Origin: Nemertoderma westbladi
Taxonomy: Eukaryota; Animalia; Xenacoelomorpha
Length of the DNA: 64,000 bases
Reading direction: 5' to 3'
Assembly: GCA_032718475.1 (NCBI GenBank)
Contig: JAUCBJ010006470.1
Span: 62,001-126,000, forward strand
The notes beneath the pieces were generated by a model that had not been told where the DNA came from, did not search any database, and was given only the letters and a program-made list of their open reading frames with translations. How positions within the stretch are numbered: position 1 is the stretch's first letter; each line of letters begins with the position of its first letter. Made by a program: the position numbers and the translations under genes. Below, in pieces: positions 878 through 64,000 of this stretch.

Positions 878-894
878 GTAAGGTATGTGATTTG

Positions 895-15638: not shown

Positions 15639-17812
15639 TGATAAACAACCGCGACCTCTATACTAACAGCAGAACTGTTGAACAGACCAATACCCGTTAA
15701 TATCCTTCTGCCAACCTAATAAGTTCTCGTCTAACCAATAAGACACGAAGACTGCTCTACTGTTAAGTAAAGGGGCTCAGGAGCGTGATATTACTAAATT
15801 GTAAGGGTTGCTAAATACAAACCGCTACTTACCGTTAGATGGCGCTAATCTGCCGTCCGCTAATATTTTTTACTAAATTTACACAACTCCTGCAAAATCG
15901 CTTGTTCCTTTCTCTACCGATTGCTCGATAGAGAGCTAACTGTTCGAATCTATGAGCCACGCAGGAATAACCAAAACAATAAACCCGAGTCGGCTCCCTA
16001 AGCTTACTTAAGACGAGTGCGAGAGGCCTTGCACTCAGAGTATTCTTACGCCTAATTCTATCACTATTAAAGCACGCTATTACCTACGTCCTTCTAATCG
16101 CGAATACTGGAGGTTCCCTAACGTAATGTGTGAATGCGAGAATATTTAAAATATCAAAATGGTACAGTATCTGTTTCTACGTGGATAATACCACTCCGAG
16201 TCTAAAACTGCCCGCGACTGGCTTTAGGCCAGCAAAATTACTAGCGTATCGTGCGTACCGAATAGTGCGTTCTAGCTGATTGCCCGCTAATGCAAATAAC
16301 CGCTCAGCGTGAATAGTTTACAGTACACTAATTATTACCTTAGCTACTCTCCGCTATGCTGCGTACTAATTCTTAATTTTTTACTAATTAATTACAGTCA
16401 CAAATATTTAACAGCGTACTAATTACTAAGAGTTCCAGAATACGTAATTCTAATTTATCACGCAACAGGTTTCGCTAGTAATAGCCTAAATTGCCGTATT
16501 ACTTTGACCTAATCAATAACTAATTATTGTAACTAAGAAATAGAAATCAATCAAAGGAAAAGAGCGCCTATCTAAGCATTCGTAATCTTAGGCACACTTC
16601 AATAACACACCAATCAGCGTTAGAAATCACAGTTTACAATTGTGCAATTCACTACTCGTACTCCACACTCAACGTTGTAATACGCGCAGGCCTCTCCCGG
16701 GTACATCTAGGATTCCTAACTAACCCAATTCCTGCCCCCCTAATACTAAATAGAGACAAAACCTGGATCATCAGCCCCCTAGATACTGTACCGGCGATCG
16801 GTCTGCGTGCCGCAGTGCAAGATACCCGCCCGCAACGGTGACCCTGGCCAGCGTTGCCCGCTTTGAATCCTCCGCTCTCTCCTAGTCGCTCAACCCCCCG
16901 ATGCGCCCACCGCCCACTGGCACCTTAGCCCTCCATGATACTAATAGCTACCGTAGCGGCGCATGCAAATCACAAAGTCTGACAGTCTCAGGAATCCCTT
17001 AGGATTATTGCGCAGAAAAGAATCACATAGAACCATTAATCAAAGGTAGAAATCATAGTTCGATTGTAATTTGCAGTAATCGAAGGAATTATTGAGAAAC
17101 ACAAGCAAAATAATCGTAATAGATATGAACAAGAAATTAATCAAAATTAGCAAATTGCAGAAAATACGATATCCTAATACAAAATTAGAGACAGCTCAGC
17201 AAGTAAATTGTAACAGGGGTGTGTCATGTGATAAGGCATGAACATATGAACAACAAAAGGCCCTACCGGCACACCGCCAATTTATAGGTGATCCCGATGG
17301 GGTGATGCAATAAGGTGACTCAATCGCTCTCCCATTGGCTCTCCAGTCCATGCTAGCATTAAACCAACCTGGAAGCAGTTAATCCAATAAGGAGACCGGA
17401 TTGTAGCCCTATGCCCTCAAATTATTACCATATATGGTAATGGATCACGTCTCTGGCTGCTGAATGGCCAGGACAGCGTCCCTATATGCTAGCCCTATCA
17501 AACTAATATCAGCAAGCACAAAATCCAGGGTCCGAGTAAACTCGCTACCCTGGAACTATCTACATATATCCTAATACAAAATTACGTAGGTAGGGCTACA
17601 TACTATACAAATGAATGGATGCAAAATATATGGGCGTTTTAACTTCCTTACCTAAATGTCACCACACTGCGCCTTATCTAAATAATTATACTGCACAACG
17701 GACTAATATTACGTACAGTATAACGGACTAATACTGCATACTGCATAATGGACTAATACTGCATACTGCATAATGGACTAATACTGTGGATACAGCGCCA
17801 TATACCGTAACA
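15639..17812 (-). repeat. A2 3' LTR (2174 bp)
   Basis: Near-identical to 32303-34476 (one C/T difference noticed, 16087 vs 32751); TGTTAC...TTATCA on the minus strand. Confidence 0.95.
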
Positions 17813-18246: not shown

Positions 18247-21200
18247 TTATCGACCCGCTCCTGGGTTCTTTGGGCTCGCTCCTCTCTTTCGTCCCCTTCC
18301 CAGATACACTAATCTACCTCTAGTCGACTCCGTTGACGGCGTCCGTGAGGCGTCACTCCCCGGAACCGGCGACGACGTTCCCTGAGCCCCGACAGATTCT
18401 CGGCTCGAACTTCTCCCTCGGCCTCGTCCCAATTGTCGCGCTCCCGTGGTCGCTTCCGCCAACTCTTCCTTCTGCAGTTGCACACGCGCTTTCTCAGACG
18501 CCCCCTGCGCCTTGCGCTGCAACCGTTGAGCTTCTATAATGGAGTGGTAGTGGTCGTCCTTGACTTGACGCTTGTCTTGGACCCCTCCTCCTGGTTCTTT
18601 CCGCGAGCCTTGAGCTCCAGCGGTCGTCGCTGTGGTCGCTGCGATCCTTTGTTCCTGTATCCTCTCGGCGGTCAATGAACCCACTGGCACATGAGTCAAC
18701 AAGAATTCGTTGCGGTATTGTATAGCCGCCATCCTCCAATCACCTCGCGCGCGTACCACTTTTCTAGTCTCCGTAAATACACCCTGATGCGATCGCAAAT
18801 AGCAACGAAGTTCCATGTGTACTTATTGTCCATGTTCAATTGTCTGAAGTATTCTCGGACTACGATAACTCCAGTGTTTTGTGGAAGGTCTTGAGCAGTT
18901 AGGATGAGCTCCTGATATTGTGGTAGCGATTGTAGATATGGCTCGTACGCAACATGCGATGGGTCTACCGCCCAAAACCCATATCCCGCTTTAAATGGTA
19001 ACCAACGCATCTGCGCTTGAATATGGTAATCCGCCACACTCTCCCACTTATCTAACATCTCCCGAAGTAGGTTAGCGCTATGGTTTTGAAAGGAATCATC
19101 TCGCAGCTGACATCTCGCGCTACGGTGTCCTTTTACTCCACAATATCCACATTGAGAAATGAAGACGGTGCACGTGTGAAACGAATGGTCGGTCTCATTG
19201 CACCAACGACAGACCTTATGCGCCGCCTCTATTACCGCGTCGCACGACTTTAGATTGTGCCTTGTGCTGCCGCACAATTTGCACCTACGCGCTTGTGGAA
19301 ACCAGGCCCTCTCGTATATGAGGTCTCCAATCGGTTTCGCACTTCCTTCCTTCCCAATGTCTAATACGATGTCGTCCTCTCCGGTCAACGGTTGTCGATC
19401 CGGAACAAAGTAAACATCCTCGCCCTTGTCCTCTATCTCCAATATTTCCTCCCGCGTTTGTTTCGGATATGTCTTCTCCACCGGAAGATCTACTCCGAAC
19501 ACCTCTACTAACGTTTCCGGCCAGCCCTCCTTAACAGGTCTATCAGCCTCCGAGTGGAAGGGAGTACCAAACCCGCGGGTTTGATTCCCGAACCACTTCT
19601 CCAAAGCTTCTGGCGTCGGATATTCCATCGACGGTCGGTCTCCCAAATCTCCGATGTTCTGTCGATATACTCCTTCGAATATCGCTAATCCTCTCCTAAC
19701 CATTGACGTATTCTCTAACGATTGGTTGAAGAACGGGGTTAAGAAACGCTTCATCACGTCGGATTGGATTCCCCCTTTCGAGCGAACGTATTGATCTCCT
19801 CCGAATACCAATGGATGACGTTTCAAAACTCGCGCAACGATATCCGCTAATAAACAAGTCACCGTGTTCGACTCAAGCACCAAATAATATTGTAGCGACG
19901 CACGGGGTGGCGCGCAAATGTTCCAATACACTAACGCTTGCCGCTTGAAGTGGGATTTGAACTCCGCTCCCGGTGGCGTGTTGTATTCGCCATACGCCTC
20001 CTCGTACTTCTTTTGCGTCTTTAACTTAAAGTCCCAATTATACAACAAGTGTGCTATAAAGCCCATACCAGTCTTGGCAGAGTTGGGATACTCCCTATAA
20101 ATTCCAATATCCTGTGCCCATAGCAACAATAGCTTGGTGTCGACAAACGGTCTCGGCAATCTATCTTCCAGATCAGTCATGGCGTTGAAGTCGCTCTCCA
20201 AATCGCTCTGGACTCCCGATCCCACCTTGACGTAATCTTGGTTGAGAATAGCCTCTCTAACTTTCTTGGGTAACATCCTGGCGTCGATACGCTCCGCTCC
20301 GTGCATACCTCCTCGCCTGCATACCTCCAAAATCTGTTCCCTAGGATCCTTCCCTTTCCGATATTGTGTCGTTATGATGGGCTCCGGTCTCTCTCGATCC
20401 GCCCTCACACGCATAAACACATGAGTCACACCATTGGCCGCACGAATTTGAATACACTTGCTAGTCAAGCATTCCTGATGGGACCCTCCTTCATTGTCGT
20501 AGAACATCACTCTCCAATCCTGCAGTGATTCCTCCGTTTTCCTCCACTGACGCTGAATCTCGTCTGATGGGGTCCACATGCGCTCGATCGCCTTGTGGTC
20601 ATCATATCGGGTATAAGAACCCTTCCTCCTCAGCCACGTCTGGTCTACTTCCTCGTCATCTGGGAATGTAGCCACCGCGACCCATACCTTGATGTACTTA
20701 TCCAACCATCCGAATAACTTACTCTCCTTCCCCGGAGCTCCAATCTTGTCCAAAGTGTCGTAATCTGTGATCTGCATTGGGACATCACGCAAGAACTTCG
20801 CGCATAAAACTTCCCGTAGACAGTCAACGTTCCAATGGTCCGCCATTCTTACCATCGGCAAGAATCGTATCGCTTCTCGCGACTCCGGATGATCTACTAA
20901 TATCGAAGGTTCGGTGCCGTCGGAATAATACACCGGTCCGGGTTGAGATACGACCTGTGGAACAAATCCGGTCACTCTCCTCGTCTCCTCTTGATGTCTA
21001 TCCGCGGTCTTATTATACTCCGCTATCCTGTTCTCAAATAACTCTTTCGCCTTCGCCGCTCGCTCCTCCTGCCGCAACGCGTCTATGTCGTCCTGATGCT
21101 CAGGCGTGAGGCTTCTCACTCGGTGAGGTGAAGTAAATGCAGTCCAGGGACTCGAGAGCTCCAAACCCGCGGGTTTGGTACCCGAGTCCCGCGCCGCTTC

Positions 21201-21950
21201 GCGCCGCGCCTCTAGATCCTTGTAGGCTCGGTACAGCGAAATGGCCGCTGCCGTCTCTATCAAACTGGGTGTCGAACAGGGTTTAATCTCCGTATACGGA
21301 TCTAATGTCGTAACGGTCGGCGTAATGGGTCTCGGAGGTCGCTTTCCGCTGAAGTCGATACTGATCATCGGGTTGCTCATCGGGTAACCTCCCTCGTTGT
21401 ATCTAAGGAATTGGTGAGCTGGACATCGCGTTAATATCGGTTCCGGATGTTGCTCGTCTAATCGGTCGGGAATCGCCACGTCCTGTTTATTCATGCATTC
21501 ACCACACTTGTAGAAGAGCTTGTATACGCTGAAGACTTTCGGCGTCTCCTGATCCTCGCCTCGAGTCCTCCGATACAGGTGCATTCCATCGAACTGGTCT
21601 CGGACTGCAGGTAGAGGCTCCTCATGTCGTAAATACATATTCATATGGTATAGTCGTGCGATTTCCTCGTCCGGATCTGCGCTAATGTCGCACACGTCCA
21701 AAGCAAAGTCGTAGGGATACCGCGTGCGATACTCTCTCCGCAAGACTTCCATCCAGTCCCCCAACGCTCTCATTCTTTCTCTCCGTAATTCTTTATCATA
21801 ACTTGGTTTGTACTTCCCGTTCAGCTCCATCACGGACCGCCCATGGTAGTAAACGTTAGAGTCTTTACATCCTGGTCGCGCGAATGGTAGCTCCGCCTCC
21901 TCTCTGGCAGTAAATCCTCTGCGCGGTTGCGCTCTAATATCCCTCTCCAT
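18247..21950 (-). pseudogene. A2 accessory ORF2 (~1235 aa; ~4-bp deletion frameshift near 18785)
   Basis: ORF 21950-18696 plus C-terminus in ORF 18816-18247; highly similar to A1 ORF2, all Cys/His motifs intact. Confidence 0.88.
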
Positions 21951-22708
21951 TATGTTACGCGTATATACATATATATATATCCCAATAAGTGCCGTTACGT
22001 AACCAACTACACTGTGGGTAAATCAGTTAGATGTCGCCGAAGGACAGACCTCCCGAACCCCCCCGCCTTCCAGCAGTTCAGGTTCGACTCTCTAGATCCC
22101 GTCTCTTCCTAACTAACCATCCTCTAACCTATTCCCATGCATAGCGCAAAAACTTTGGAGATAAACTGGCCGTGACCAACTCACTTTTTGATGCCCAAAC
22201 TACTCCCATTACTCGTACTAAACTACAGTAGTTAGAAAGGACTATAGCCACAATACTCGACTATACCAAACCCACAGGTTTGATAATCGAACATCACACA
22301 TCCTGCAAACTACTGAGTGGGGTCCGTGCACCCCTCTGGTGCTACTAACCTTTAGCACCCTAGTTGCACTGTTGGCACCAATCTGTGGAAGTTGCTAAAC
22401 TCAATTTACACTCCTACGTAATATAGCCGTCACCATGGTTTCTAAATGCTATTTTCCAGGCTTCACGACTTTTCAAATTACTGTTTATCTATAGACGAAT
22501 TCTAAAACGCGTCTATACACAGCGTCTGGAATTGTCTTGGGTTCACTTCTAATTTTTAAAATTTTCTAATTTTTTCCAAAATTTTGAAATAAAATTTTGT
22601 TTTGATACCCACCAGACAAAACTCAACGCAAATCACCACAACCCCGCTCCTATGCATTTCCTTGTATTTGCATACGAGGAATGCATACGAAGTGAGTTGC
22701 GTCCAACA

Positions 22709-32292: not shown

Positions 32293-32302
32293 CGCGTATT
32301 AC
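32293..32302 (-). other. A2 non-tRNA primer-binding site GTAATACGCG, complementary to its own LTR (33341-33350; 16677-16686)
   Basis: Immediately follows the 5' LTR CA end; exact 10-nt complement of LTR sense-strand CGCGTATTAC. Confidence 0.65.
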
Positions 32303-34476
32303 TGATAAACAACCGCGACCTCTATACTAACAGCAGAACTGTTGAACAGACCAATACCCGTTAATATCCTTCTGCCAACCTAATAAGTTCTCGTCTAACC
32401 AATAAGACACGAAGACTGCTCTACTGTTAAGTAAAGGGGCTCAGGAGCGTGATATTACTAAATTGTAAGGGTTGCTAAATACAAACCGCTACTTACCGTT
32501 AGATGGCGCTAATCTGCCGTCCGCTAATATATTTTACTAAATTTACACAACTCCTGCAAAATCGCTTGTTCCTTTCTCTACCGATTGCTCGATAGAGAGC
32601 TAACTGTTCGAATCTATGAGCCACGCAGGAATAACCAAAACAATAAACCCGAGTCGGCTCCCTAAGCTTACTTAAGACGAGTGCGAGAGGCCTTGCACTC
32701 AGAGTATTCTTACGCCTAATTCTATCACTATTAAAGCACGCTATTACCTATGTCCTTCTAATCGCGAATACTGGAGGTTCCCTAACGTAATGTGTGAATG
32801 CGAGAATATTTAAAATATCAAAATGGTACAGTATCTGTTTCTACGTGGATAATACCACTCCGAGTCTAAAACTGCCCGCGACTGGCTTTAGGCCAGCAAA
32901 ATTACTAGCGTATCGTGCGTACCGAATAGTGCGTTCTAGCTGATTGCCCGCTAATGCAAATAACCGCTCAGCGTGAATAGTTTACAGTACACTAATTATT
33001 ACCTTAGCTACTCTCCGCTATGCTGCGTACTAATTCTTAATTTTTTACTAATTAATTACAGTCACAAATATTTAACAGCGTACTAATTACTAAGAGTTCC
33101 AGAATACGTAATTCTAATTTATCACGCAACAGGTTTCGCTAGTAATAGCCTAAATTGCCGTATTACTTTGACCTAATCAATAACTAATTATTGTAACTAA
33201 GAAATAGAAATCAATCAAAGGAAAAGAGCGCCTATCTAAGCATTCGTAATCTTAGGCACACTTCAATAACACACCAATCAGCGTTAGAAATCACAGTTTA
33301 CAATTGTGCAATTCACTACTCGTACTCCACACTCAACGTTGTAATACGCGCAGGCCTCTCCCGGGTACATCTAGGATTCCTAACTAACCCAATTCCTGCC
33401 CCCCTAATACTAAATAGAGACAAAACCTGGATCATCAGCCCCCTAGATACTGTACCGGCGATCGGTCTGCGTGCCGCAGTGCAAGATACCCGCCCGCAAC
33501 GGTGACCCTGGCCAGCGTTGCCCGCTTTGAATCCTCCGCTCTCTCCTAGTCGCTCAACCCCCCGATGCGCCCACCGCCCACTGGCACCTTAGCCCTCCAT
33601 GATACTAATAGCTACCGTAGCGGCGCATGCAAATCACAAAGTCTGACAGTCTCAGGAATCCCTTAGGATTATTGCGCAGAAAAGAATCACATAGAACCAT
33701 TAATCAAAGGTAGAAATCATAGTTCGATTGTAATTTGCAGTAATCGAAGGAATTATTGAGAAACACAAGCAAAATAATCGTAATAGATATGAACAAGAAA
33801 TTAATCAAAATTAGCAAATTGCAGAAAATACGATATCCTAATACAAAATTAGAGACAGCTCAGCAAGTAAATTGTAACAGGGGTGTGTCATGTGATAAGG
33901 CATGAACATATGAACAACAAAAGGCCCTACCGGCACACCGCCAATTTATAGGTGATCCCGATGGGGTGATGCAATAAGGTGACTCAATCGCTCTCCCATT
34001 GGCTCTCCAGTCCATGCTAGCATTAAACCAACCTGGAAGCAGTTAATCCAATAAGGAGACCGGATTGTAGCCCTATGCCCTCAAATTATTACCATATATG
34101 GTAATGGATCACGTCTCTGGCTGCTGAATGGCCAGGACAGCGTCCCTATATGCTAGCCCTATCAAACTAATATCAGCAAGCACAAAATCCAGGGTCCGAG
34201 TAAACTCGCTACCCTGGAACTATCTACATATATCCTAATACAAAATTACGTAGGTAGGGCTACATACTATACAAATGAATGGATGCAAAATATATGGGCG
34301 TTTTAACTTCCTTACCTAAATGTCACCACACTGCGCCTTATCTAAATAATTATACTGCACAACGGACTAATATTACGTACAGTATAACGGACTAATACTG
34401 CATACTGCATAATGGACTAATACTGCATACTGCATAATGGACTAATACTGTGGATACAGCGCCATATACCGTAACA
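32303..34476 (-). repeat. A2 5' LTR (2174 bp)
   Basis: Direct repeat of 15639-17812. Confidence 0.95.
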
Positions 34477-34482
34477 GTATAT

Positions 34483-35250
34483 GCAGACTCCGAAATGATT
34501 AGGCAGTATGCGTTCTAACCCAGTAGTACGACTTATTCTTTAATTGGGGGTTTACCTTACCGCATTGGCTGCCCCTACTTCCTAACCGTACTTAATCGGA
34601 CAGAGGCTCTACACACACTACAATCCGTTCAGACCTAATAACAGCCAGACAACTATCCAGCCTACAAATTATCTAAATAAATATTATACGCTACCCGTAC
34701 AGACTTACACAAACAAAGTACAGACTAAACGATGGCAGACTACTCTCAAGCCTAAATAAACTACAGGACATGCAGACTCCGAAATGATTAGGGAGTATGC
34801 GTTCTAACCCAGTAGTACGACTTATTCTTTAGTTGGGGGTTTACCTTACAGCATTCGCTGCCCCTACTTCCTAACCGTACTTAATCGGACAGAGGCTCTA
34901 CACACACTACAATCCGTTCAGACCTAATAACAGCCAGACAACTATCCAGCCTACAAATTATCTAAATAAATATTATACGCTACCCGTACAGACTTACACA
35001 AACAAAGTACAGACTAAACGATGGCAGACTACTCTCAAGCCTAAATAAACTACAGGACATGCAGACTCCGAAATGATTAGGGAGTATGCGTTCTAACCCA
35101 GTAGTACGACTTATTCTTTACTTGGGGGTTTACCTTACAGCATTCGCTGCCCCTACTTCCTAACCATACTTAATCGGACAGGTGATCTACACACACTGCA
35201 ATCCGTTCGGACCTAACAGCAATCAGACAACAGCTCAGCCTACAAATCGT
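34483..35250. repeat. 289-bp tandem repeat (~2.7 units) in the B3 leader
   Basis: GCAGACTCCGAAATGATTAGG recurs at 34483, 34772 and 35061. Confidence 0.92.
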
Positions 35251-35574
35251 CTGTACAATCTGATCAGGTTTACACGCCTTCTGTTCAATACTGGCCTACA
35301 AATAAATAAAACTTGACAGAAATAAGTAAACCATATAAAGGAATAAGGGGTGATCAATCCCTAATCCCTTAAACAGCCTACCGGTATACAACAATCAAAT
35401 CGAATAATACTAATGTACTTATACGGAAGTACCGGTTAGGACAGTTGGGCCTACGGGCCTACGGACCTACAGAAGTACCGGTTCTGGCAGTTGGGCCTAC
35501 TGACCTACGGCAGTACCGTTCAGGTTTACCGGTTGACCGGTACTTTCAACTTTATTGCTTACTGCAATAAAGAA

Positions 35575-35590
35575 GACATATATCCTTTAA
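35575..35590 (-). other. B3 non-tRNA primer-binding site TTAAAGGATATATGTC, complementary to its own LTR (36410-36425)
   Basis: Zero spacer after the LTR end ...GCGCGAACA; exact 16-nt complement of LTR sense-strand GACATATATCCTTTAA. Confidence 0.8.
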
Positions 35591-36861
35591 TGTTCGCGCT
35601 TTCAGACCTTTGGCAGTTTAATCCGCCAAATTAAGATGTCTTCTAGATATTAAATCGCTTTTTAGCCTATGACAAGTATTTGATTCACTACACTAGTCGA
35701 AACCAATCTGTGCGCGATCATTCACCCGCTGGATATTCCCGGGAGATTGGGTTCGACGGTTTAATTTTATTGCTATGTAAGCCTAATGTATTATTCGACT
35801 GACAGTATTATATAATCTCTGACAATATTATTCACCTTAGGGAATATTAACAGTTCCTTTAGGACGTGGCGCTTTATTTATATAAACAGAGTTATGACTT
35901 AAACTACTCACAACGATATGGCTTAATTATAATTCACATATATGGCGCATTCTTTAGGAATTGCTTCTTTAACAGACTCACTCATACACAATGCTGCACA
36001 ATACTGCACACTAATCTGCCAATCTTCACTGATTTTAGTCACATATAAAAGGAACACAGACTGACTCATGTAGGGTCTATCAAATAACATTAGATTCACT
36101 TCAAACCACTTTAACATAAGTCACAATCGTTATTGGTAACCTTTCTCTCTTACCTTCGGTATATCAAGAATATTGGGTTTTCGGGGTTATTTCTCGTTAT
36201 TCCAATATAATAATTCATCAACAAATATAATGAATAACCGACAACAAATAGCAGTATACAGTATCGATTGAGCAGGTAATTTTAGCAGTTTCAGCAGTTA
36301 TACGGCAGTTATTAAAAGCCGTGTGTGCCGTGTGTCAGCAGTTATTACGAAATTGCAGTTATTACGAAATTGCAGTTATTACGAAATTGCAGTTATTACG
36401 AAATTGCAGTTAAAGGATATATGTCCTTATAATTAAACCTACTAGTGTTGAGCTAAAAAGCAGAAAGCACAAAACACTACAAAGCCGTTCTTTCGTGGCT
36501 TTGAAAAACTCGTGACTACTACTCTATACGAGGATACCAACTACCCTTATTCCACGAAGCTCCCGTTCAACACAGAGAAAGAGCAGTGAGATAGGAAAAT
36601 TTCAGTTCAGTAGCTCTGTGATAGGTCAAAATCAAGGCTAACTCAAATTCTATTGGGAGATACAAAAACAAGGCTATGACGCAACCTTCCTAGGCTGGTT
36701 GGCCGATTAAACAGAGCCCAGATACCTGCGTACAGCAAATCAGCCAATAAGCTGGTAGCTTGCACTATTTTAGCTATAGATCCCCTTTAGAGTATTCTAG
36801 CGACCGGGGGGGAACTGGCCAACAAGGCAAACGAATCAGTTATCCCACAAAAGCTTTTACA
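35591..36861 (-). repeat. B3 5' LTR (1271 bp; contains ~4 copies of 17-bp GCAGTTATTACGAAATT)
   Basis: TGTAAAAGC...GCGCGAACA on the minus strand; homologous to the other B LTRs. Confidence 0.92.
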
Positions 36862-37623
36862 ATATCCGTTATCTGATGTCTGATCTCAACTCATACCTCA
36901 ACTCAACTCATAACATACCATACCTAATCAAACAACCTGTGCATACTTTATATTGTTATACTGCTATTTACTGTCAGTTCTTCATAATATGGTTGATGAA
37001 TTATTATATTTGGAATAACGATAAATAACCCCGAAACCCAATTTTCTTGATATACCGAAGGTAAGAGAGAAAGGTTACATATAACGATTGTGACTTATGT
37101 TAAAGTGGTTTGAAGTGAATCTAATGTTATTTGATAGACCCTACATGATTCGGTCCGTGTTCCTTTTATATATAACTAAAATCAGTGAAGATCGGCAGAT
37201 CAGTGTGCAGTATTGTGCAGCATTGTGTATGAGTGAGACTGATAACGAAGCATTTCCTAAAGAATGCGCCATATATGTGAATTGTAACTAAGCCATATCG
37301 TTGTGAGTAGTTTAAGTCATAACTCTGTTTATATAGATAGAGCGCCACGTCCTAAAGGAACTGTTAATATTCCCTGAAAGTGAATAATATTGTCAGAGAT
37401 TATATAATACTGTCAGTCGAATAATGCATTAGGCTTACATAGCAATAAAATTAAGCCGTCGAACCCAATCTCCCGGGTATATCCAGCGGGTGAATGATCG
37501 CGCACAGATTGGTTTCGACTAGTGTAGTGAATTAAATACTTGTCATAGGCTAAAAGTGATTTATTATCTAGAAGACATCATAATTTGGCGGGTTAAACTG
37601 CCAAAGGTCTGAAAGCGCGAACA
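36862..37623 (+). repeat. 5'-truncated family B LTR (B4) whose right end abuts B1 RT
   Basis: Matches the solo LTR from ~50957 to 51674; ends GCGCGAACA and is followed directly by mid-RT codons (VIDNIKRD). Confidence 0.9.
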
Positions 37624-43701: not shown

Positions 43702-44871
43702 TGTAAAAGCTTTTGTGGGATATAACTGGCCCTTTTGCTTCGCAATCCAGTTTCCCTCAATGCGCTCAAATACTCTAAAGAAAAACTCCCTAACTCAAAT
43801 GATGCAAGCTACCGGCTGATTGGCTGATTTGCTGTACGTATGGCCTCTTTGTTCTGTTCGATCAACCAACCAGAGCAAGGTCAACCAAGCAGAGTGATTC
43901 ATCCTGTGTGTTGGCTAAGGGCTGCAAAAACCCGAATAGTTCGGCATTTAGACATTCGTGGAATCTGTGGAATATGGAGCTCTGCCAATGAGAGCTTTTC
44001 CTCTTTGTGTTGAAAGCTATCTGCAACAGCTCACAGGGTCAATGTTTACATTTTGTCCTGAGCCTAGAAGACCGGCTTTTGGAATCTCTGTGTTTTTCAG
44101 TCTTAGCCCAACATTAGTAGGCTTAATTATAGAACGTATATCTGTTATATTAACAATTCATATCAATCAAACAAACCAAATCGATCATATCAATTTATAC
44201 CTTAACACTTGTACTGCTATTTACTGTCGGTTATTCATTATATCTGTTGATGGAATATTATTATATTGGAGAATATCAATCAATAATCAGACACCCCAAT
44301 CTTCTTGATATACTGAAGGTTAGAGAGACCGGTTACATATAACGATTGCGACTTACATTAAAGTGGTTTGAAGTGAATCTAATGCTATTTCATAGGCACT
44401 ACATGTATTGTCTGTTGTTCTCTTTATATGTGACTAAAATTAGTGAAGGTCGGCAGATCAGTGTGCAGCATTGTGCAGTATGATTGTGACTGATAACAAA
44501 GCATCTCCTAAAGAATGCGCCATATACGTGAATCCATAGCCATCCCGTTGTGTCTAGTTTAAGTCATAACTCTGTTTACATATTTAGAGCGCCACGTCCT
44601 AAAGGAACTGTTAATATTTCCCGAAAGTGAATAATATTTGTCAGAGATTATATATTACGATCAGTCGAATAATACAGTAGGCCTACACCGCAATAAGATT
44701 AAGCTTCCGAATCCAGTCTCCCGGGTATATCCAACGGGTGAATGGACGCGCATAGACTGGCTTCGGCTAATGTAGTGTATCAAATACTCGTCATAGGCTA
44801 AAGTCGATTTATTATCTAGAAGACATCCCAATTTGGCAGGTTAAACTGCTAAAGGTCTGAAAGCGAGTACA
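43702..44871 (+). repeat. B1 3' LTR (1170 bp)
   Basis: Preceded by GGGAGCGG; TGTAAAAGC...GCGAGTACA. Confidence 0.92.
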
Positions 44872-46981: not shown

Positions 46982-48187
46982 CAGGATTGATTTTAAGATT
47001 GCTGTATACACGTACACGTAGGCGTACACGTAGACGTAGACGTAGACGTACACGTACACGTCACGTACACGTACACGTACACTTACAAGTGTCTCCACAA
47101 CATGGCGCCGGCGTATCTTACTAACCTCATATCTATGTATTCTCCCTCACGCGTTTTGCGATCAAGCACCGCCGGTTACTTGAATGTCCAACGATATAGA
47201 CTAGATAATTATGGAAAGCGGGCTTTTTCTGTGTCTGCCCCGTTGGTATGGAATGCACTGCCAAACGAAGTTCGATCAGCACCGTCTCTAGCATCGTTTA
47301 AGACCAAATTAAAGACCCACTATTTTAAAGATGAATACGTACACGTACACGTACACGTACACGTACACGTACACGTACACGTACACGTACACGTACACGT
47401 ACACGTACACGTACACGTACACGTACACGTACACGTACACGTACACGTACACGTACACGTACACGTACACGTACACGTACACGTACACGTACACGTACAC
47501 GTACACGTACACGTACACGTACACGTACACGTACACGTACACGTACACGTACACGTACACGTACACGTACACGTACACGTACACGTACACGTACACGTAC
47601 ACGTACACGTACACGTACACGTACACGTACACGTACACGTACACGTACACGTACACGTACACGTACACGTACACGTACACGTACACGTACACGTACACGT
47701 ACACGTACACGTACACGTACACGTACACGTACACGTACACGTACACGTACACGTACACGTACACGTACACTTACAAGTGTCTCCACAACATGGCGCCGGC
47801 GTATCTTACTAACCTCATATCAATGTATTCTCCCTCACGCGTTTTGCGATCAAGCACCGCCGGTTACTTGAATGTCCAACGATATAGACTAGATAATTAT
47901 GGAAAGCGGGCTTTTTCTGTGTCTGCCCCGTTGGTATGGAATGCACTGCCAAACGAAGTTCGATCAGCACCGTCTCTAGCATCGTTTGAGACCAAATTAA
48001 AGACCCACTATTTTAAAGATGAATACGAACTCTAACGTTTTTATAAATTTTTATTAGTATCAACTTTTTATAGTGTTGTGTAGATAGATCATAAACTGTA
48101 TTCCGTTTTAATTATTGAGTAGTGTGCGCCTAGAACAATGCGTATAGGCGTGGTAGAAATATATTATTATTATTATTTTTATTATTA
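46982..48187 (+). mobile_element. L2-clade LINE 3' end with internal duplication, 3' stem-loop and (ATT)n tail
   Basis: RIDFKIAVYTYKCLHNMAPAYL..LRS..YGKRAFSVSAPLVWNALP..FKTKLKTHYF; CGCCTA..TAGGCG hairpin at 48127-48150; ATT tail at 48162-48187. Confidence 0.82.
47339..47770. repeat. (GTACAC)n microsatellite, ~72 units
   Basis: Perfect hexamer array; shorter degenerate array at ~47005-47082. Confidence 0.97.
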
Positions 48188-48320: not shown

Positions 48321-49495
48321 TGTTCGCGCTTTCAGACCTTTGGCAGTTTAACCCGCCAAATTAGGATGTCTTCTAGATAATAATTCGCTTTTAGCCTATG
48401 ACAAGTATTTGATTCACTATACTAGTCGAAACCAATCTGTGCGCGATCATTCACCCGCTGGATATACCCGGGAGATTGGGTTCGACGGCTTAATCGTATT
48501 GCTATGTAGGCCTAATGTATTATTCGACTGACAGTATTATATAATCTCTGACAATATTATTCACCTTCGGGAAATATTAACAGTTCCTTTAGGACGTGGC
48601 GCTCTACCTATATAAACAGAGTTATGACTTAAACTACTCACAACGATATGGCTTAGTTACAATTCACATATATGGCGCATTCTTTAGGAAATGCTTCGTT
48701 ATCAGTCTCACTCATACACAATGCTGCACAATACTGCACACTGATCTGCCGATCTTCACTGATTTTAGTCACATATAAAAGGAACACGGACCGAATCATG
48801 TAGGGTCTATCAAATAACATTAGATTCACTTCAAACCACTTTAACATAAGTCACAATCGTTATATGTAACCTTTCTCTCTTACCTTCGGTATATCAAGAA
48901 TATTGGGTTTTCGGGGTTATTTATCGTTATTCCAAATATAATAATTCATCAACCATATTATGAAGAACTGACAGTAAATAGCAGTATAACAATATAAAAG
49001 TATGCACAGGTTGTTTGATTAGGTATGGTATGTTATGAGTTGAGGTATGATAACGGATATATGTCCTTATAATTAAGCCTACTAGTGTAAGACTAAAAAC
49101 TGAAAACACGGAGGTGCCAAAAGCCGGTTCTTAGGCTCTGGGCAAAACATAACACTGAACTACTGTACTGAGCCTCTGTATACACCTCCAACACAGAGAC
49201 AACAAACGCTCTGATTGGTCAACCGAACAACGAGAGAACAAAGAAACAAAGAACTGTCGACGTGGCAATATCAGCTGCTAGCCGTCGTCATGGTAGCGCC
49301 ACTGTTTTCAAGAGTATCCAGCTATTGCGTCACGAAATTACGGATTATGTCCTTTAAAGTACACATACAGAAGAAATGACTTTTATGTCCTCTAAAACAC
49401 CAGTACAGTAAGGACACGGCCTTTTTATGCCTGGTAAACCAACTACAGAGTACTTTACGGGAAAATAACCGGCTAATTACGCAAAAGCTTTTACA
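48321..49495 (-). repeat. B2 3' LTR (1175 bp) with a divergent U3-side segment
   Basis: Termini and 3' two-thirds match other B LTRs; ~49140-49480 does not obviously align with them. Confidence 0.92.
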
Positions 49496-49574
49496 CCGCT
49501 CCCAGAAAATGGGATTTAAGTCTATAAAATATAACAAATCACAGTTTCTAAAATATAAAGATACTCTAAACAGT

Positions 49575-52063
49575 TAGTCTTTCTTACGCAGACGGCGTTT
49601 ACGCAGTTTTTGAGGCTAGCAAGAGTCTTTTTCTCTTTGGGGGGAGCCACTTTACTAGGAGGGCCATAACTCCTGGGTGAAGGGTGCAATATGATTGCAT
49701 CAGAAGGTGTAGAATTATGGTCGAGGTATCTGCCGTTTCGATATGCTTCTCCTCGAGCTGATTTTCCTCCGCTCGTAGCTGGATACGTTCATCCAAAATC
49801 TCTCGCAGAGAATAGGATCGTCCAAGTTCGATAACTTCTTAGAGATTCTGGATTTCCCAATCGAATTGAGATAAGGCCAATTCGTTTATCGATTGGACTT
49901 ACTGTTATAACTTACGTTTATCTGAACAAACGCAGGTTTCTTTTTTGATCTTTATAGAATAGCGTTTAACTCGTTTCGTACAACGCTCTCCTTCACCTTG
50001 ATGAGGGGTTGTATCGCGTTAAACGGGGACGACCATACGGTTGGATAGTGATATTAGGTGTCCGCGTCACAATCCGGCTAGGTAAGATGGGCGGCTAGCT
50101 AGAAATCACTGTCGGAGTGTTACCGATTAATTGTTAGGGTAGCACTAGATCTTTGAACAGTGAATACAGTCCGCGAGGATCCGCGACACCACCAGGATCG
50201 CAGGTCTGAGGTCCAACTAAGGAATGAGGAGATTTGACCGAGTATTCCGGGACTCTGATCGTAGGTTTACTCCAGGATCGTTCGAGCCGAGTGAGCATAG
50301 GTGATACGTCAAACAAGTTTCGCTCGAACTCCAGTAAATATAACGAGCACAACTGTGTTTAACACAACGTTTCCGTAGATGTTTATGTCTTTCCGTTTAT
50401 TGGCTGGGTCTAGGACATTTATCGTAATAATACCAAAGACGCACGTCTGGTAGGGGAAACGCGGATGATATTTATTTGTTGTTACAATGCTTCTATCAAG
50501 AATCCCAAATATATGTTTGTAAAAGCTTTTGTGGGATAACTGATTCGTTTGCCTTGCTAACCAGTTCCCCCCCAGGCGCTAGAATACTCTAAAAAGGGAT
50601 CTATAACTCGAATAGCGCAAGCTACCGGCTGATTGGCTGATTCGCTGTGCGAAGGGATCTGGGCTACGTTTGATTGTCCAACCAGCTTGGGAAAGTTGCC
50701 CCACAGCCCTGCTGTCTTTATCTGCCAATAGGATTTGAGTTGATTTTGATTTCGACCTATCACAGATCTACTGAACTGAATTTTCCTATCTGTATGCTCT
50801 TTCTCTGTGGTGGGTGGAAGCCTTTGTAAATAAGGTTTTTCTTATCAGTTTTCAGTGTTGTTGGTCTTTCTGTCCTGAGCCAGGAGAGAACGGCTTGTAA
50901 ATATTTTGTGCTTTTCTGTTTTAGTCTAACACTAGTAGGCTTAATTATAAGGACATATATCCGTTATCTTAACACACACTGAATCACTGTGTATACTTTT
51001 ATATTGTTATACTGCTATTTACTGTCAGTTCTTCATAATATGGTTGATGAATTATTATATTTGGAATAACGATAAATAAGCCCGAAACCCAATATTCTTG
51101 ATATACCGAAGGTAAGAGAGAAAGGTTACATATAACGATTGTGACTTATGTTAAAGTGGTTTGAAGTGAATCTAATGTTATTTGATAGACCCTACATGAG
51201 TCGGTCCGTGTTCCTTTTATATATAACTAAAATCAGTGAAGATCGGCAGATCAGTGTGCAGTATTGTGCAGCATTGTGTATGAGTGAGCCTGATAACGAA
51301 GCATTTCCTAAAGAATGCGCCATATATGTGAATTATAACTAAGCCATATCGTTGTGAGTAGTTTAAGTCATAACTCTGTTTATATAGATAGAGCGCCACG
51401 TCCTAAAGGAACTGTTAATATTTCCCGAAGGTGAATAATATTGTCAGAGATTATATAATACTGTCAGTCGAATAATACATTAAGCTTACATAGCAATAAG
51501 ATTAAGCCGTCGAACCCAATCTCCCGGGTATATCCAGCGGGTGAATGATCGCGCACAGATTGGTTTCGACTAGTGTAGTGAATTAAATACTTGTCATAGG
51601 CTAAAAGTGATTTATTATCTAGAAGACATCCTAATTTGGCGGGTTAAACTGCCAAAGGTCTGAAAGCGCGAACAATGTTGGAGTTACCGCGTTTATTTGT
51701 TTCTTTAATGTCTTTTCTTTCGAGTCGATTTCGAATAGGATTTTCGCATTAGAATTTTGGTTTATCGTTTCGACTCCTCTGGGTAGGATATGTTCGACAT
51801 AGTCCGTATCGTGTAAATCGATAGAATGGCCAATGGTTAAGAAGTCCATATACATACCATTACAATGCGTGTAGCGAGCGGTGAATTTTCCATAGTCCAA
51901 TTCACGCGTAAGTTACTTCCAGGAAATCGTAGGTTCGATATAACGACCATCATCCTTCGTAGTAGTTGGACTAGTATCACCGCGTATCAAGCTATCAACA
52001 AACGCTTGAAAGTAGAGTATATCGCTCCCTGATACCAAGACCATCTTCTATCAACTCCGTCAT
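49575..52063 (-). pseudogene. B2 accessory ORF2 remnant, decayed and interrupted by a solo LTR
   Basis: Fragments (RYTHCNGMYMDFLT; ERNLFDVSP..LYSLFKDLVLP; DERIQLRAEENQLEEKH) match B1 ORF2; 3' boundary approximate. Confidence 0.75.
50518..51674 (+). mobile_element. Solo family B LTR (1157 bp) with 5-bp TSD ATGTT
   Basis: ATGTT at 50513-50517 and 51675-51679 flanks TGTAAAAGC...GCGCGAACA. Confidence 0.96.
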
Positions 52064-53720: not shown

Positions 53721-56700
53721 TTAAGTTGGGGAGTCCCCAGATGTCGGCTGGATTAGGGAAGTGGTCGTGGGAAGGGTTTCTTGCCTTCCATAGTTTCCGG
53801 AGAGCTCTCTGTCTCTTTCCAGTAAACATAAACGACCCACTGGGCGGTTGAGCTGTTGAGTCTCAAAGACTATCCCTGGTTTCTTAAAGTTACGCCGCAT
53901 GACGACGAGTTCTACTGATCGCACCAAACCATCGCTCGAGATATGAGTCTCGATGATACGTCCTGTTTGCCATCGCTTACGTGGGAGATCGGGGTCCACA
54001 ATAAGCACCATGTCTCCAGCGCTGACGTTTTCTTGCTGCGCAAACCACTTAGTTCGAAGTTGTAGAGTGGGCAGGTAATGTTTCTCGAAATGGTCAGCGA
54101 AACGACGGGATAGCAACTGCATAAGTTGCCAGGTTCGACGGCAGTACTCGTCTCCGTCTGTGATCTCCGATCGTGGGAGCATGGCTACGGGTTTCTTCAG
54201 TAGAAAGTGCGCGGGTGTTAGCGCTTCCAGGGAATCAGGACTTGAAGAGACTGGCATAAGCGGTCTTTCGTTGAGATAGGCGGCGATTTCCTCCATTAAC
54301 GTCCGCAATAGTTCGTCGGTGAGATAAGCGCGACAAGGTACAATAAAGTGGAACGCAGTCTTCACGCTCCTAATCAATCTCTCCCAACTTCCTCCCCACC
54401 AAGGGGCGTCGGCGGCGTTGAAGGTCCAGCTAGACGCTGTTATCTTTAGCTGATCGTCCACCTGTCTTTTGTTCCAGTCCTTTACGTAAGCTTGAATTTC
54501 GTTGTTGGCGCCAATGAAGTTCGTTCCCTTATCCGATCTCATCGTGTTACTGGTTCCGAAGCGAGCGATCTGTCGTCGTAAACTCAACACGAAGCTGTTG
54601 GTGGATAGATCGTTTACCATATCGAGATGGATAGCTCTACAAGTCATACAAACGAAGATGACACACCATCTCTTGACTATAGTCCGGGCACGATATACTT
54701 CAATAGGGCCAAATAAATCCACACCGGTATTAGTAAAGGGTGGTTCATAGAAGCTTACTCTTTCCCTAGGTAATTCTGCCTCTCGCTGTGTCAAAGGCCT
54801 ACTGAATGCTTTCCTACAGGGTATGCAGTTCCTAAGGACTTGGTTCAGAGCCCTACGGGGTTTATAAAAATAGTAGCGAGTTCGAATTTCGCTCAGAACT
54901 CGTTCTCTTCCAGCATGATACAGTTTGCTATGAACATCTACAATCATCTTGATTTGTATGTCAAGATTTCTAATGAGTATGGGAAACTTAGTGTCAAAGG
55001 ATAATGGGGCGTTGGTGAGCCTGCCTCCAACACGTATTAACCCATCTATCATGGTACTAGAGAAGCGATCCCTTAAGCGCATCTGCGGATTTCTTAACAA
55101 CAGGAAATACTTATCGGGATCCTCATAGCATTGTAGGAGTCTCAGCATCTGTTTGTTGGTTTCATCATGCTCCTGGTAACTGATCTTCTCCTTTAGAAAC
55201 CTGTCGGATATCTTATATTTAGGAAGATCTTTAACAACATGGACTCGTGCAGATGTTGATGGAGCATCATCACTATTGGTCTTTGTCCCGGAGTAACGAT
55301 GATGAAAACATCGTTTTAAATAGGTGACGGCTTTACAGAGCCGATTCCAGGAACTGTAGTGACGTATCGCTCTCTGCAAGAGGGGTGAGAGTCCTTGCGC
55401 GATATCTGGTATTCCAGATTTCCAATCCTTGTCACGGATTTCCAAGACTTCTTTATCCGTGGCTGTGGGTTTCTGATCCAAAGCATCCTCTCCGGAAGTA
55501 AATAATACAGATAGATCAACCGCAGGTTTAAACAACTTCGATTTACTCGCTCGAGTTTTGGGTTTAACTTTCTCCGCTCCCTTGGCCTGTCTGATCTCTG
55601 CTGTTGTGAGATGGGGAGGCCATTCTTCTTCTTCTCTGTAGAGAAAGTCGGGTCCACCTAACCATTCGGGAGTATTTACCAATTCCTTTGGAGTCGCTCC
55701 TCGGGAAGCGATGTCTGCTGGATTAATCGTTCCGGGGCAATGTCTCCATTGGTCCATCGTCGTGCGACTAAGTATGATGGCTACTCTGTTGGTAACGAAG
55801 ACGCTGAACTGACAGACTTCATTGGTTATATACTCTAACACGAGTAAAGCGTCGGTCCAATAGACAGTTTTCTCTAATGGATAGTCAATCTGTTCTGTTA
55901 CATTCCGGCCGATGGCTGTAGCGTATAGAGCCGCTTTTAACTCCGCTCGAGGAACTTTCAACTTGTTGTTGATTAATGCCTTAGAAGTAACCAAGGCGAC
56001 TTTGATTCCATCCGGAGTTTCCACTCTTAGATAGGCTACTATACCTATTCCCATATCGCTGGCGTCTCCAAACACATGGAGTTGATAGGAATACGTAGGG
56101 AGAACATGACCAAAATATGAACGGGAAATTATAAAATCCTCGATAGCCGGCAGAGAATCTTCCCATTTCATCCACTTCTTTAATAATTCTCCCTTAAGTG
56201 GATCGTCCCATGAGTGGTTTTCAAGCCACATTTGTTGTACCAAACTACGAGCAATCAATATAACTGGGCTAATAAATCCCAATGGATCGAAATAAGTGCT
56301 CAGTATACTTAAGCAAATCCGTTTGGTTCGAACTGGATTATCTCGCTGTTTTAGCTGGAAAAACAGGATATCTCGCTCTGTGTCCCATTTCAAGCCGAGT
56401 GTCTTGGTTTCTGGCAGATCATCTTTGATCAAATCTAGATCTTTCGCCCCTCGATCTTCCGCAGGGATCGACTCCAGAAACTCACGGGAGTTGCTGGTGA
56501 ATTTCGTTAATCGAAACCCACCTCTTTTTAAGCACTCTACCGTTCCTTTAGCGACCTCAATGGCTTCCTCAACTGATGGGAGGGACTTCAGATTGTCGTC
56601 CATGTATATGTCTCGCTTGATGTTGTCGATCACTTCCTTAGAGAATGCCTCTCGGTTGTCCTCTGCAGTGGTACGCACTACCGAACAGGCGTTGGAAGGG

Positions 56701-59700
56701 CTTGAGATTATCCCAAAGGCCTGGATGGTCATCCAGTACTCCACCGGTTTCTGGTTGAGGTCTCCTTCGGGCCACCACAGAAATCGTAGACTATCTCGAT
56801 CCCTATCTAACACCTTGACTTGTAAGAACATGCCTTCTATATCGGAGGCGAAAGCAATCGAATATTGTCTCAATCTTAAAAGAATTCCCAACAAAGATTG
56901 AAGTAAGTTGGGTCCGGGTAACAATTCAGAGTTAAGGGATTGACCCATGTAAAGAGCGGAGCCATCAAACACTACTCTCACTTCATGTGGTTTACCGGGT
57001 TTAGGAACGTAATGGTGAGTTAAGTAATACGTTCTTTCAGTCACAGGTGTTTCTTCCGGTACTCTCTCCGCGTATCCCTTACTAATAAATTTCTCCAGCT
57101 GTGTTTGATACATTTCTTTAGCTGAAGAATTAGCCGTAAGGCGTCGATGGAGTTGCGCGATTCTTTTTTCCGCCAAGGGTCTGTTATTGATGAACTTCGG
57201 TTCTCTCTTGCGGAAAGGTAGACCGACTTCATACCTACCTTGATCTTTGAGGAAACGTGTAGTTGTCTCTTGGATCTGCTTGGCCCTTTCCTCTTCCACC
57301 GACAAGGCTTTATCGTAGGAATTGGGCTCTACCGCCTCTTGCGTAAAGAATCGTACGGCATGTTCATCTCGAGTCTTGGCATTACAACGCTCAATGACGT
57401 CATTTAACTCGTCGTTATAAGCTTCTCGTTCAGATGGATAAAGAAGTTGACATAAGTTCACTTGGTTTTGCCAAGCCTCGTTTTCCTTAAGGAGATCGAT
57501 GGTATTCTCCTCATCAAAAAGCTGGTGAATGTCGTCGTTATCTGAGGAGTATGGAGTTCCCTCAGTTAAATCGTCTCCCTCACTAGTATCATCTTCCCAT
57601 TCACTCACCTGGCAGACGCTCTCTGGCGGTAGTCTTTCTCTGAGTGTTCTACGGGAAGGGCCAGTAAAGTACCAACCTACTCTAGTTCTTACCGCATAGG
57701 TCTGTAGCGGCTGCGGTTGAGCAGGCCGTTTCTCTAATGTCTCCAGCGCCTCATGCGCGTTTTGGCCGATGAGTATTTGCACTCCAGGATAATCAGTCTG
57801 GAATCGAGGTATGTTAAGATGTTGGATGCTCTCATCCTCGTCCCAATTATAAAGGTCTGCTTGAGTAGTAGCGAAGTTCTTTATAGCCACCATTTTCACT
57901 GACCTTATGCTATGTTCTCCTAGTTCGTCCTGGGGGGTGGACAACGCTCCTACATAATAATCCGCTGTTATTGTAGATTTCCAAACTTGCATAATGCCTG
58001 ACATGTTTAGCGTAGTTCGGAACTTGGGTTGTCCAGCAAATATGTCTTCGGCTAGCTCTTGGTCGATGAATGTTCCTGTACTACCGGAGTCAAGGAGGGC
58101 GTTCACTACGTAACTCCTCTTAGGTCCGTGAACCCTTACCTGTACCACAGGAAATTCTCTAATCCCTACATTGGAAGTTGGCGCTTTCCAAGATAGTTGT
58201 CGATCAGAAGTATTTAAAGCAAGGTCAATGTCTGATGTATCCTTTTCATAAATGAGTGCTCGATACACTGTGGTATTTATCATGTAACAGGATTCGTTTT
58301 CGTCGGAGAACTCGTCCGTATAGAATCCTTCCATCTCAGATTGATCAGTGTCGTTCACATCACTGAATTGGACATGTAGTTCGGAATCACTTACCTGACT
58401 CGGACTATTTCGCTCGAATTCCGCGTGCAACAAGATATGATGTTTCGCACCGCACTTGGCACATCTTGTGTCAGAGTAACAGGTTCGCCGTTGGTGTCCT
58501 TGTCTGAGGCAATTATAACATAACCGCTTGTCCCACATGACTTCACGTCTCTCAGTTAATGATTTCTTTAGAAATTCATCACACATATTCAAACGGTGGG
58601 TCCCGTCACACAGCGCACATTTCGGTTTGATGTTACTTACCTTATTTTGGGTGACATTGTGTACACTTGTTTTTTCTTCGGGCTTTCTCACCTGAATTCT
58701 CTTGGGAGACGTAGGAGGAGTTTTTCTTACCTGTTCTCTCCTGTCATTTGTTCGAGACTTAAATTTACTTACCTGATCTCTAGGTGTTTTATTGACATAA
58801 TAAGATCTTTCAGTGTCTTTCCCGCTATCCTCCCCTTGGGAAGCTCTGGCTTTCGCCGTCATCGGTATAACACACTGGTGTTACCTTTCTCCTAGCGACG
58901 GGTTTTTCACTTACCTTGTTTTCCGGTGTCTTCTCTCTGGACAGTTTCAGGAGCTGTAATTTCACTTCTCCATCTAGGAATGACATGAGATCAGCCATGG
59001 TAGGGTCTCTTCGTTGTTGTTCCATCATATATAACACTTTCTTATCCCAGCGTGTGCCTACTCCACCCTTCGGTAAAGTAGAAGCTACTGCTCTAATAAC
59101 CATAGTGTTCTGATACTCATGAGACTTACCTAGCCAATCTAATTGTCTGCAGATCTCCTGAATCTCATCGGAAAACTCTATAATTCCGCTGCTAATAAAC
59201 TTTCGGGGCGCTACCAACTTTGCATACAAATACCCAGCTATGTTATTCCTATTACCATACCTGATGTTAAGTGTATCCCAAACTTGTCTTAATCCGTCTG
59301 GATGTCCAATAAACTTTAACGCCATTAACTTGGGAGATCCTTCCAAGCATTCGATGAGGAATCTAAGTTTCTCTCCATTAGATAGCACAGAGTTCTGTAT
59401 GTTATCTTTGTAATATTCATTAAAAGGTAACCATTTCATCTCATCTCCATTGAACTTGACGATCTCTCCCACCTTTACAGCTTGCCGGGCTTCGGTTCTA
59501 GCCATTTGACGCGTAAAACTTTCTTGGGCCATCGTGTTATTTAATATCGAGTTATCGGTATATAAATTTCTCGGATTATGATCCGTTCTATATGGAATAT
59601 CATTATCAACAGGTCTATAATTACCCTTAATAGGGTTCACTATAGGAGTTTCTACTTCGTTAGCAGTATATATGCGTGTAGGCTCCACACCTTGCGCATG

Positions 59701-61806: not shown

Positions 61807-61939
61807 GTTGGTTTACACAGTTGAATGCCTACTGCTATATTACAGTTTAAGCAAGTCTAGTAATTCAGAGTTAACTGCTAGCCTAGTAATTAATTACCGA
61901 TACTGCTACTCAGTGTAGCGTGATATATATAATATATTA

Positions 61940-63820: not shown

Positions 63821-64000
63821 TCTGTACAATCTGATCAGGCTTACACGCCTTCTGTTCAATACTGGCCTACAAACAAATAAAACTTGACAGAAATAAGTAA
63901 AAATCTCAATAAAAAACCAGGGCGGGCCCTCCCTGATTAATTATTAAGGCCTACCGGTATATAATTATCAAAATCGAATAATACTGCTGTACCTGTACTG

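Follow-up and report, generated by a model that had tools for sequence, protein, structure and literature searches.

A likely self-primed Bel/Pao retrotransposon family in Nemertoderma westbladi, with a primer-binding site complementary to its own long terminal repeat

According to ICTV, the international committee for virus taxonomy, retrotransposons of the Belpaoviridae (the Bel/Pao superfamily) are primed by host tRNA-Arg or tRNA-Gly, via an 18-nt primer-binding site (PBS) that is the complement of the tRNA 3' end (PMC8742986). For Tf1, priming by the element itself is described: the first 11 nt of its RNA pair with the PBS, RNase H cuts between nucleotides 11 and 12 (PMC7175516, PMC4600332), and the cDNA ends keep a copy of the PBS (PMC11042837). 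In Tf1 and Tf2 from Schizosaccharomyces pombe, Tj1 from S. japonicus and the Tf1/sushi group, the PBS lies by the 5' long terminal repeat (LTR) and is an 11-nt complement of the element's own RNA, the primer being produced through cutting by RNase H. Self-priming has also been predicted for Tcn1 (moss) and for the plant copia elements TAR, Houba and Osr-1 (PMC6317226), so that the known cases go beyond the Tf1/sushi group cited in an earlier sequence-only reading of the DNA studied here. This DNA is a 64,000-nt stretch of N. westbladi (contig JAUCBJ010006470.1, positions 62,001–126,000; hereafter, the window) with 44% GC and no N, in which LTR retrotransposons belonging to two families, A and B, are nested. 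Here we consider family B, and in particular its copy B3, whose PBS is complementary to its own LTR; an LTR-adjacent self-complement is thus common to family B and the Tf1/sushi elements.

The 5' LTR of B3 (35591–36861, minus strand; 1271 bp, TGTAAAAGC...GCGCGAACA) ends at position 35591, and TTAAAGGATATATGTC (35590–35575, minus strand) adjoins it without a spacer. These 16 nt are the exact complement of positions 36425–36410 of the sense strand of the same LTR (the candidate self-primer segment; minus strand, LTR positions 437–452 of 1271, with a 12-nt core at 36421–36410), and the duplex extends to 18 nt with one G–U pair. The PBS is followed by a 9-bp hairpin (35550–35572, minus strand, −11.8 kcal/mol); a contig variant alters its loop, and the stem arm seen stays intact. 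No TGG, the start of a tRNA-type PBS, occurs within 200 nt of the LTR end. The observation made in the sequence-only reading is confirmed, and all the coordinates it stated are correct. The complement is real and beyond chance: a 16-nt match at offset 0 was reached by none of 300 dinucleotide shuffles of the B3 LTR, and by calculation 1e-6 matches would be expected for the full 16 nt and 3.5e-4 for the core of 12 nt. When 17,910 positions of the window served as an empirical null, 29 matches of 16 nt were obtained; the window contains a palindromic microsatellite as well as long inverted pieces of LTR. A spliced primer was also considered for B3 and rejected, the best match being 7 nt. Cer7, a Bel/Pao element from Caenorhabditis elegans, is said to encode a tRNA-like primer gene; a literature search found no paper on it. 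No gene of that type was detected in this window, where ARAGORN yielded no tRNA genes and Rfam no matches at gathering score, and where the core motif is confined to LTRs and PBS. By analogy with Tf1, family B likely primes its minus-strand DNA with an LTR-derived segment of its own RNA, without being a member of the Tf1/sushi group.

The extent of the complement and its variation can be followed in public contigs. Four of seven public runs (X1, X3, X4, X5), all in the form of contigs, were aligned to the locus, substitutions being listed from 2% of contig depth, which is not equivalent to copy number. Family B proved to be highly repeated and polymorphic at the PBS. Base 35576 is absent in 20,955 of 24,284 depth in X1 and in 40,256 of 42,319 in X3, and base 35578 in 19,212 of 24,487 and 37,791 of 47,449, respectively; therefore, the family-typical duplex is 12 nt long. 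It is 11 nt for B LTRs whose segment ends in T, and 14 nt in a minority lacking the first of the two bases only. Thus, 16 nt is not the primer length of the family, as had been supposed, but is specific to B3, an extended copy. The extra PBS bases of B3 match its own LTR upstream of the core, as might be expected of a trace of run-on copying of an LTR-derived primer; the direction of the change is unproven.

The sole substitution listed in the 101-nt alignment falls within the PBS, at its position 5. It is T>G at 35586, found in 74,682 of 228,858 depth in X1 (20 contigs, 33%) and 41,301 of 166,158 in X3 (10 contigs, 25%), absent in the single contig of X5, and at a site without coverage in X4. 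This change mirrors the LTR variant of B2, the solo LTR and the truncated LTR, whose variant sites (49065–49050, 50952–50967 and 36862–36872, respectively), pointed out in the sequence-only reading, are real. Moreover, a PBS subfamily, represented by one contig each in X1, X3 and X5, differs from B3 at positions 1, 5, 6, 8 and 12; its positions 1, 5 and 6 complement the LTR variant of B1, so that, by eye, it forms 10 of 12 pairs with B1 vs. 7 of 12 with B3. At population level, the covariation between PBS and LTR proposed earlier is mirrored at position 5, and not, as an A>T change, at position 1. Consequently, a B2 PBS starting with A, as had been predicted, is unlikely: in the runs covering the site, no A>T at 35590 reached 2%, whereas T>G at 35586 did.

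The same polymorphism bears on the possibility that the primer is a host tRNA fragment or another host small RNA, the LTR match being incidental or regulatory. Half-tRNA priming does exist in copia elements (PMC6317226), and an internal fragment of a host tRNA may conceivably be used. However, a host primer re-templates a fixed PBS, whereas this one is polymorphic and differs among subfamilies and between the two copies of family A, A1 and A2. In addition, all 189 tRNA 3' 12-mers in an eLife table (PMC13524379) end in CCA, whereas the primer of family B would end in TAA or TA. Since a host RNA would also leave unexplained both the mirrored changes and the split among relatives described below, we consider this origin quite improbable.

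Comparison with Tf1 suggests how priming by the LTR segment could proceed. Transcription would start at or shortly upstream of the segment, which would then form a duplex with the PBS, closing a loop of about 700–820 nt, unlike the situation in Tf1/sushi elements. The RNase H of the element, or another nuclease, would cut at the 3' end of the segment, leaving a 3'-OH from which reverse transcriptase (RT) would copy U5-R back to the cut before jumping to the 3' LTR. Plus-strand synthesis would copy the retained RNA primer, carrying LTR changes into the PBS and keeping the two matched; if such copying ran on past the core, it would explain the four extra LTR-matching bases of B3. While Tf1 is primed by the initial 11 nt of its RNA, the extension in B3 suggests that the primer RNA of family B reaches at least 4 nt further 5'. 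Family B shows the sequence hallmarks of the Tf1 type, namely, an LTR-adjacent PBS, at least 10 nt of complement to its own LTR and no tRNA site, and the two differ in RT lineage: the Tf1/sushi group are Ty3/gypsy chromoviruses, whereas B is assigned to Bel/Pao by PF05380, PF03564 and PF18701. The structure of the LTR is compatible with this scheme. In the 40 nt up to the segment end, pairwise alignment scores among four B LTRs are 29–39, and in the next 40 nt, 12–17; that constraint ceases at the segment's 3' end fits a cut site and strand-transfer point, without proving one. With the RNA start placed at the segment or 35 nt upstream of it, folding predicts the duplex, 15 of its 16 pairs having a probability of at least 0.89. 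In B3, alone among the B LTRs of the window, a 17-bp tandem array of 4.4 copies (36338–36412, minus strand) begins at this 3' end.

Further evidence comes from distant relatives. Of 93 related loci collected, 35 carry paired repeats flanking the coding region, and in 17 the 5' LTR end could be defined; loci L008, L042, L043, L048, L082 and L087, although carrying repeats, were left out of the analysis. Eleven further regions (L117–L127) provided four TGG elements with usable ends (L117, L119, L121, L122), the others being dropped: L118 (the repeat is not an LTR; 10 nt, 14/200 shuffles), L120 and L123 (uncertain ends), and L124–L127 (no LTR pair or no RT). A self-complement of 10–15 nt at offsets 0–3 from the LTR end was found in 13 of 14 loci without TGG and in none of the seven TGG loci, where matches were 4–6 nt long in the first three and 3–8 nt in the four added ones. 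Each of the 13 was reached by no more than two of 200 shuffles, and antisense controls did not exceed 9 nt. Eleven of them span GT–AG junctions (donors GTAAGT, GTAAGG and GTACGT), and two (L021, L075) are contiguous. By Fisher's test, the difference has a probability of 7e-5 for loci and, with L072 and L075 omitted, of 9e-4 for families (9/10 vs. 0/6), kinship being uncorrected; as regards boundaries, that of L072 was set by hand after the candidate had been seen, L023 was trimmed by one base, and L075 is uncertain. Among 12 loci with an undefined LTR end, seven have a best candidate of at least 10 nt, out of 15–40 candidate ends each and without a null. In L088, L090 and L117, the TGG site matches a tRNA-Tyr end among those listed. 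Taking these loci together with families A and B, we are inclined, by a small measure, to think that a large part of Bel/Pao is self-primed, with a contiguous (A, B, L021) or an intron-spliced (11 relatives) LTR primer, that the PBS is rewritten in each cycle, and that the extension from 12 to 16 nt in B3 is a fossil of such copying.

Several observations on individual relatives may be added. In L065 (LTR positions 232–351), the splice donor is preceded by a TATA word at a distance of about 35 nt, so that the spliced primer, like the primer of Tf1, could form the extreme 5' end of its RNA. The primer of L021 (LTR positions 225–235) is contiguous, in a clade whose other primers are spliced, which is the pattern that loss of an intron should leave. 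Among loci L080–L093 and L094–L127 there are intact-looking Bel/Pao elements in bins labelled bacterial or archaeal, some on megabase contigs; most likely, these are misbinned contigs of host animals.

The relatives help to weigh two more explanations. The pairing may be structural, serving packaging, dimerisation or a translation switch, with something else acting as the primer. Long-range pairings in the leader are common in retroelements, and a hairpin follows the PBS in both families A and B. Among the relatives, a strong hairpin at this place is not the rule, the 32 nt folded having values between −0.3 and −7.9 kcal/mol. Yet, in the 13 relatives, A2 and B3, the pairing starts 0–3 nt from the LTR end, the position that a primer must define, and no other primer site is present; hence, we regard a purely structural role as very unlikely. 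Alternatively, a functionless match could go back to an accident in a single ancestor, either a template switch or an inverted duplication, in favour of which one may cite the heavily nested and rearranged locus and the atypical 16-nt version in B3. The recurrence of the same geometry with different sequences in A, B and many relatives, and never in TGG elements, largely refutes such an accident, to which we assign hardly any probability.

Family A, which is 34% identical to B over the polyprotein and forms with it a pair of sisters on a long branch (99 SH-like support), far from all the relatives collected, provides a similar case. The PBS of A2, GTAATACGCG (32293–32302, minus strand), of non-tRNA type, lies directly after the 5' LTR (34476–32303), is followed by a hairpin, and is an exact, anchored 10-nt complement of the candidate primer segment CGCGTATTAC (33341–33350, minus strand; LTR positions 1127–1136). 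When contiguous matches are considered, two of 300 shuffles reach this length, and on its own this self-complement is suggestive. A spliced primer was rejected for A2, with 8 nt reached by 112 of 200 shuffles. The in-silico definition applied to TAR, Houba, Osr-1 and Tcn1 (PMC6317226) is at least 10 nt of LTR complement located 0–5 nt after the LTR, and both B3 and A2 conform to it; those elements belong to other superfamilies and hosts than B, and their self-priming is a prediction alone. The non-tRNA PBS of A1 (878–893, plus strand) differs from that of A2 and has no complement longer than 8 nt elsewhere in the window; its predicted partner in the LTR would be found some 170 nt outside the window, ahead of the first base. 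A1 and A2 are 97% identical in RT-RNase H, and their PBS regions (878–893 vs. 32302–32287) differ by a 2-nt indel and two C/T changes, the latter of which would preserve G–U pairing with the segment of A2.

A number of points weigh against self-priming of family B in the manner of Tf1. The evidence is derived from contigs, and it consists of sequence relations, every biochemical step being modelled on Tf1. The covariation of PBS and LTR is a population-level one, unlinked within single copies, and is expressed in contig depths. The LTR-side variant at 36414 is not among the variants listed. Nor is any A>T at PBS position 1 (35590), despite four of the five B LTRs in the window having a segment that ends in T; therefore, position 1 is probably outside the required duplex, which would comprise 11 nt (positions 2–12). 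If spliced matches and offsets 0–3 are allowed, the A2 match is reached by 11 of 200 shuffles. One non-TGG relative, L081, reaches just 8 nt (21/200 shuffles), and the relatives in general are distant (path at least 1.9), mutually non-independent and mostly of the spliced-junction type, which A and B lack. No AATAAA is conserved in the B LTRs. Finally, a TATA-like word, TTATAAG (in some contigs TATAAAG, through an additional base behind 36426), lies 1–2 nt upstream of the segment, and TATAWA words are present in all four B LTRs at LTR positions 935–953 (1048 in B3), about 500 nt downstream of the segment. If either acts as a promoter, the segment would sit upstream of the start site, in U3. 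Folding gives a probability of zero for the duplex when the RNA starts at least 175 nt upstream.

These promoter words and the loss of the duplex are what one would expect if the primer were element-derived by another route, with the segment in U3 and the primer coming from the 3' LTR copy, a co-packaged RNA or an LTR small RNA (PIWI-interacting RNA-like). The large loop of family B, exceeding the 74–160 nt separating segment and PBS in the spliced relatives L016, L020, L083 and L092, points in the same direction. However, a splice junction lies within the primer of the relatives, and AATAAA or ATTAAA follows the primer 3' end by 12–88 nt in all six loci that yielded both; therefore, the primer is not the RNA 3' end and would need a cut, which fits a transcribed and cut R segment rather than U3. 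In family B itself, a pyrimidine-rich tract ending in AG lies 30–40 nt upstream of the segment in four of four LTRs (by eye), which also speaks against a U3 location. On balance, priming by such a route seems unlikely. The contigs of X5, tentatively RNA, gave no transcript start or end. Tf1-like self-priming from the LTR segment, the tRNA-independent mechanism proposed in the sequence-only reading, is still something we infer, and it is the best-supported explanation, given family A, the relatives and the mirrored PBS polymorphism.

Assignment to Bel/Pao is based on the coding region. Pfam places both families there (PF03564, PF05380, PF17921 and PF18701, with an E-value of 8e-36 for PF05380 on B2), and the best protein matches are Bel/Pao polyproteins with about 35–44% identity, the named ones being from sea urchins, cnidarians, molluscs and fish. 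The gag-pol region of B2 (53721–61812, minus strand), in two overlapping frames, contains motifs of protease (PR), RT (YMDD), RNase H (RH; D-E-D-D) and integrase (IN; D-D-E), in the order PR 262, RT 759, RH 937–1053 and IN 1386–1497; RNase H catalytic motifs are present in both B2 and A2. The Gag-PR-RT-RH-IN order, LTRs of about 1.2 kb, a polypurine tract (PPT) and one or two open reading frames (ORFs) are shared with the Belpaoviridae as described by ICTV (PMC8742986), as opposed to the type of PBS, non-tRNA in B and tRNA-primed in that description. The LTRs have the features typical of Bel/Pao, with TGT...ACA ends, a PPT and, at the solo LTR, a 5-bp target duplication. The 18-nt tRNA-complementary PBS of the ICTV definition is lacking in family B, and TGG sites are carried by seven relatives; since membership rests on Pol, B is placed in Bel/Pao despite its non-tRNA PBS. 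The tree, computed by FastTree, was rooted at its midpoint, has SH-like support values and came with warnings of long branches, and thus we claim no order of events; named references of clades such as Bel, Pao, Tas, Suzu, Sinbad and Sailor are not among its sequences. Exact family B patterns had no matches in metagenome or viral contigs, and a protein scan of viral contigs revealed no relative.

The window holds five copies of the B LTR: the B3 5' LTR, the B2 3' LTR (48321–49495, minus strand), the solo LTR (50518–51674, plus strand, with target duplication ATGTT), the B1 3' LTR (43702–44871, plus strand, with a diverged primer segment near 44138–44148, ATATCTGTTAT) and a truncated LTR (36862–37623, plus strand), which has the opposite orientation to B3, starts inside the primer segment and adjoins B1 pol. 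The LTR start was set at TGTAAAAGC (36861) because of the junctions between PPT and TGT in B1 (43702) and B2 (49495), the PPT preceding it being CTGGGAGCGG. The B3 leader (34477–35549, minus strand), cut off by element A2, is homologous to the B2 leader (63250–63998), which fixes the orientation of B3; the PBS of B2 itself would lie about 165 nt past the window end. Both leaders contain 289-bp tandem repeats (34474–35247 and 63250–63823). Regions 35591–37623 and 48321–51674 were considered as LTRs with long inverted ends, and this was rejected, as they are nested LTRs in opposite orientation; given that 36862–37623 is a separate truncated LTR abutted by B3, the B LTR has no long terminal inverted repeats. 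The truncated LTR retains exactly the last 11 nt of its primer segment. The simplest account of the junction at 36861/36862 is a nested insertion at an AT-rich site; a remote alternative is an end-to-end jump onto strong-stop DNA, which would mark the RNA 5' end. In the B2 3' LTR, the first third aligns poorly with other B LTRs, and a second, degenerate copy of the primer segment is located at 49352–49337 (minus strand). An ACGTAC microsatellite of 73 copies (47337–47775) lies between B1 and B2. In family A, the A2 LTRs (15639–17812 and 32303–34476) are 99.9% identical and their flanks are different elements (the A1 3' LTR and the B3 leader), which suggests a recent insertion followed by deletion or recombination. 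Downstream of pol, this family has an extra ORF of 1108 amino acids (18696–22022, minus strand; split counterpart at 11146–14923, plus strand), with no Pfam matches and a best PDB E-value of 0.051, env-like by position alone.

As the sequence-only reading had supposed, no report of self-priming in Bel/Pao was found in the literature, in a search whose coverage falls short of most subscription journals and Repbase reports. The main texts of two Bel/Pao surveys (PMC3118150, PMC6238403) mention neither primer, PBS, tRNA nor priming, and the Sinbad paper (PMC554778) only PCR and sequencing primers. If family B is indeed self-primed, tRNA-independent priming, experimentally shown in Tf1, would reach a third LTR superfamily, and the ICTV description of the Belpaoviridae would change. 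This bears on whether self-priming is ancestral or has arisen repeatedly, hairpin priming in an LTR ancestor being a speculation in PMC3601003. Annotation tools dependent on a TGG PBS would overlook such elements or place them wrongly. For the elements themselves, self-priming would mean an escape from host control by tRNA fragments.
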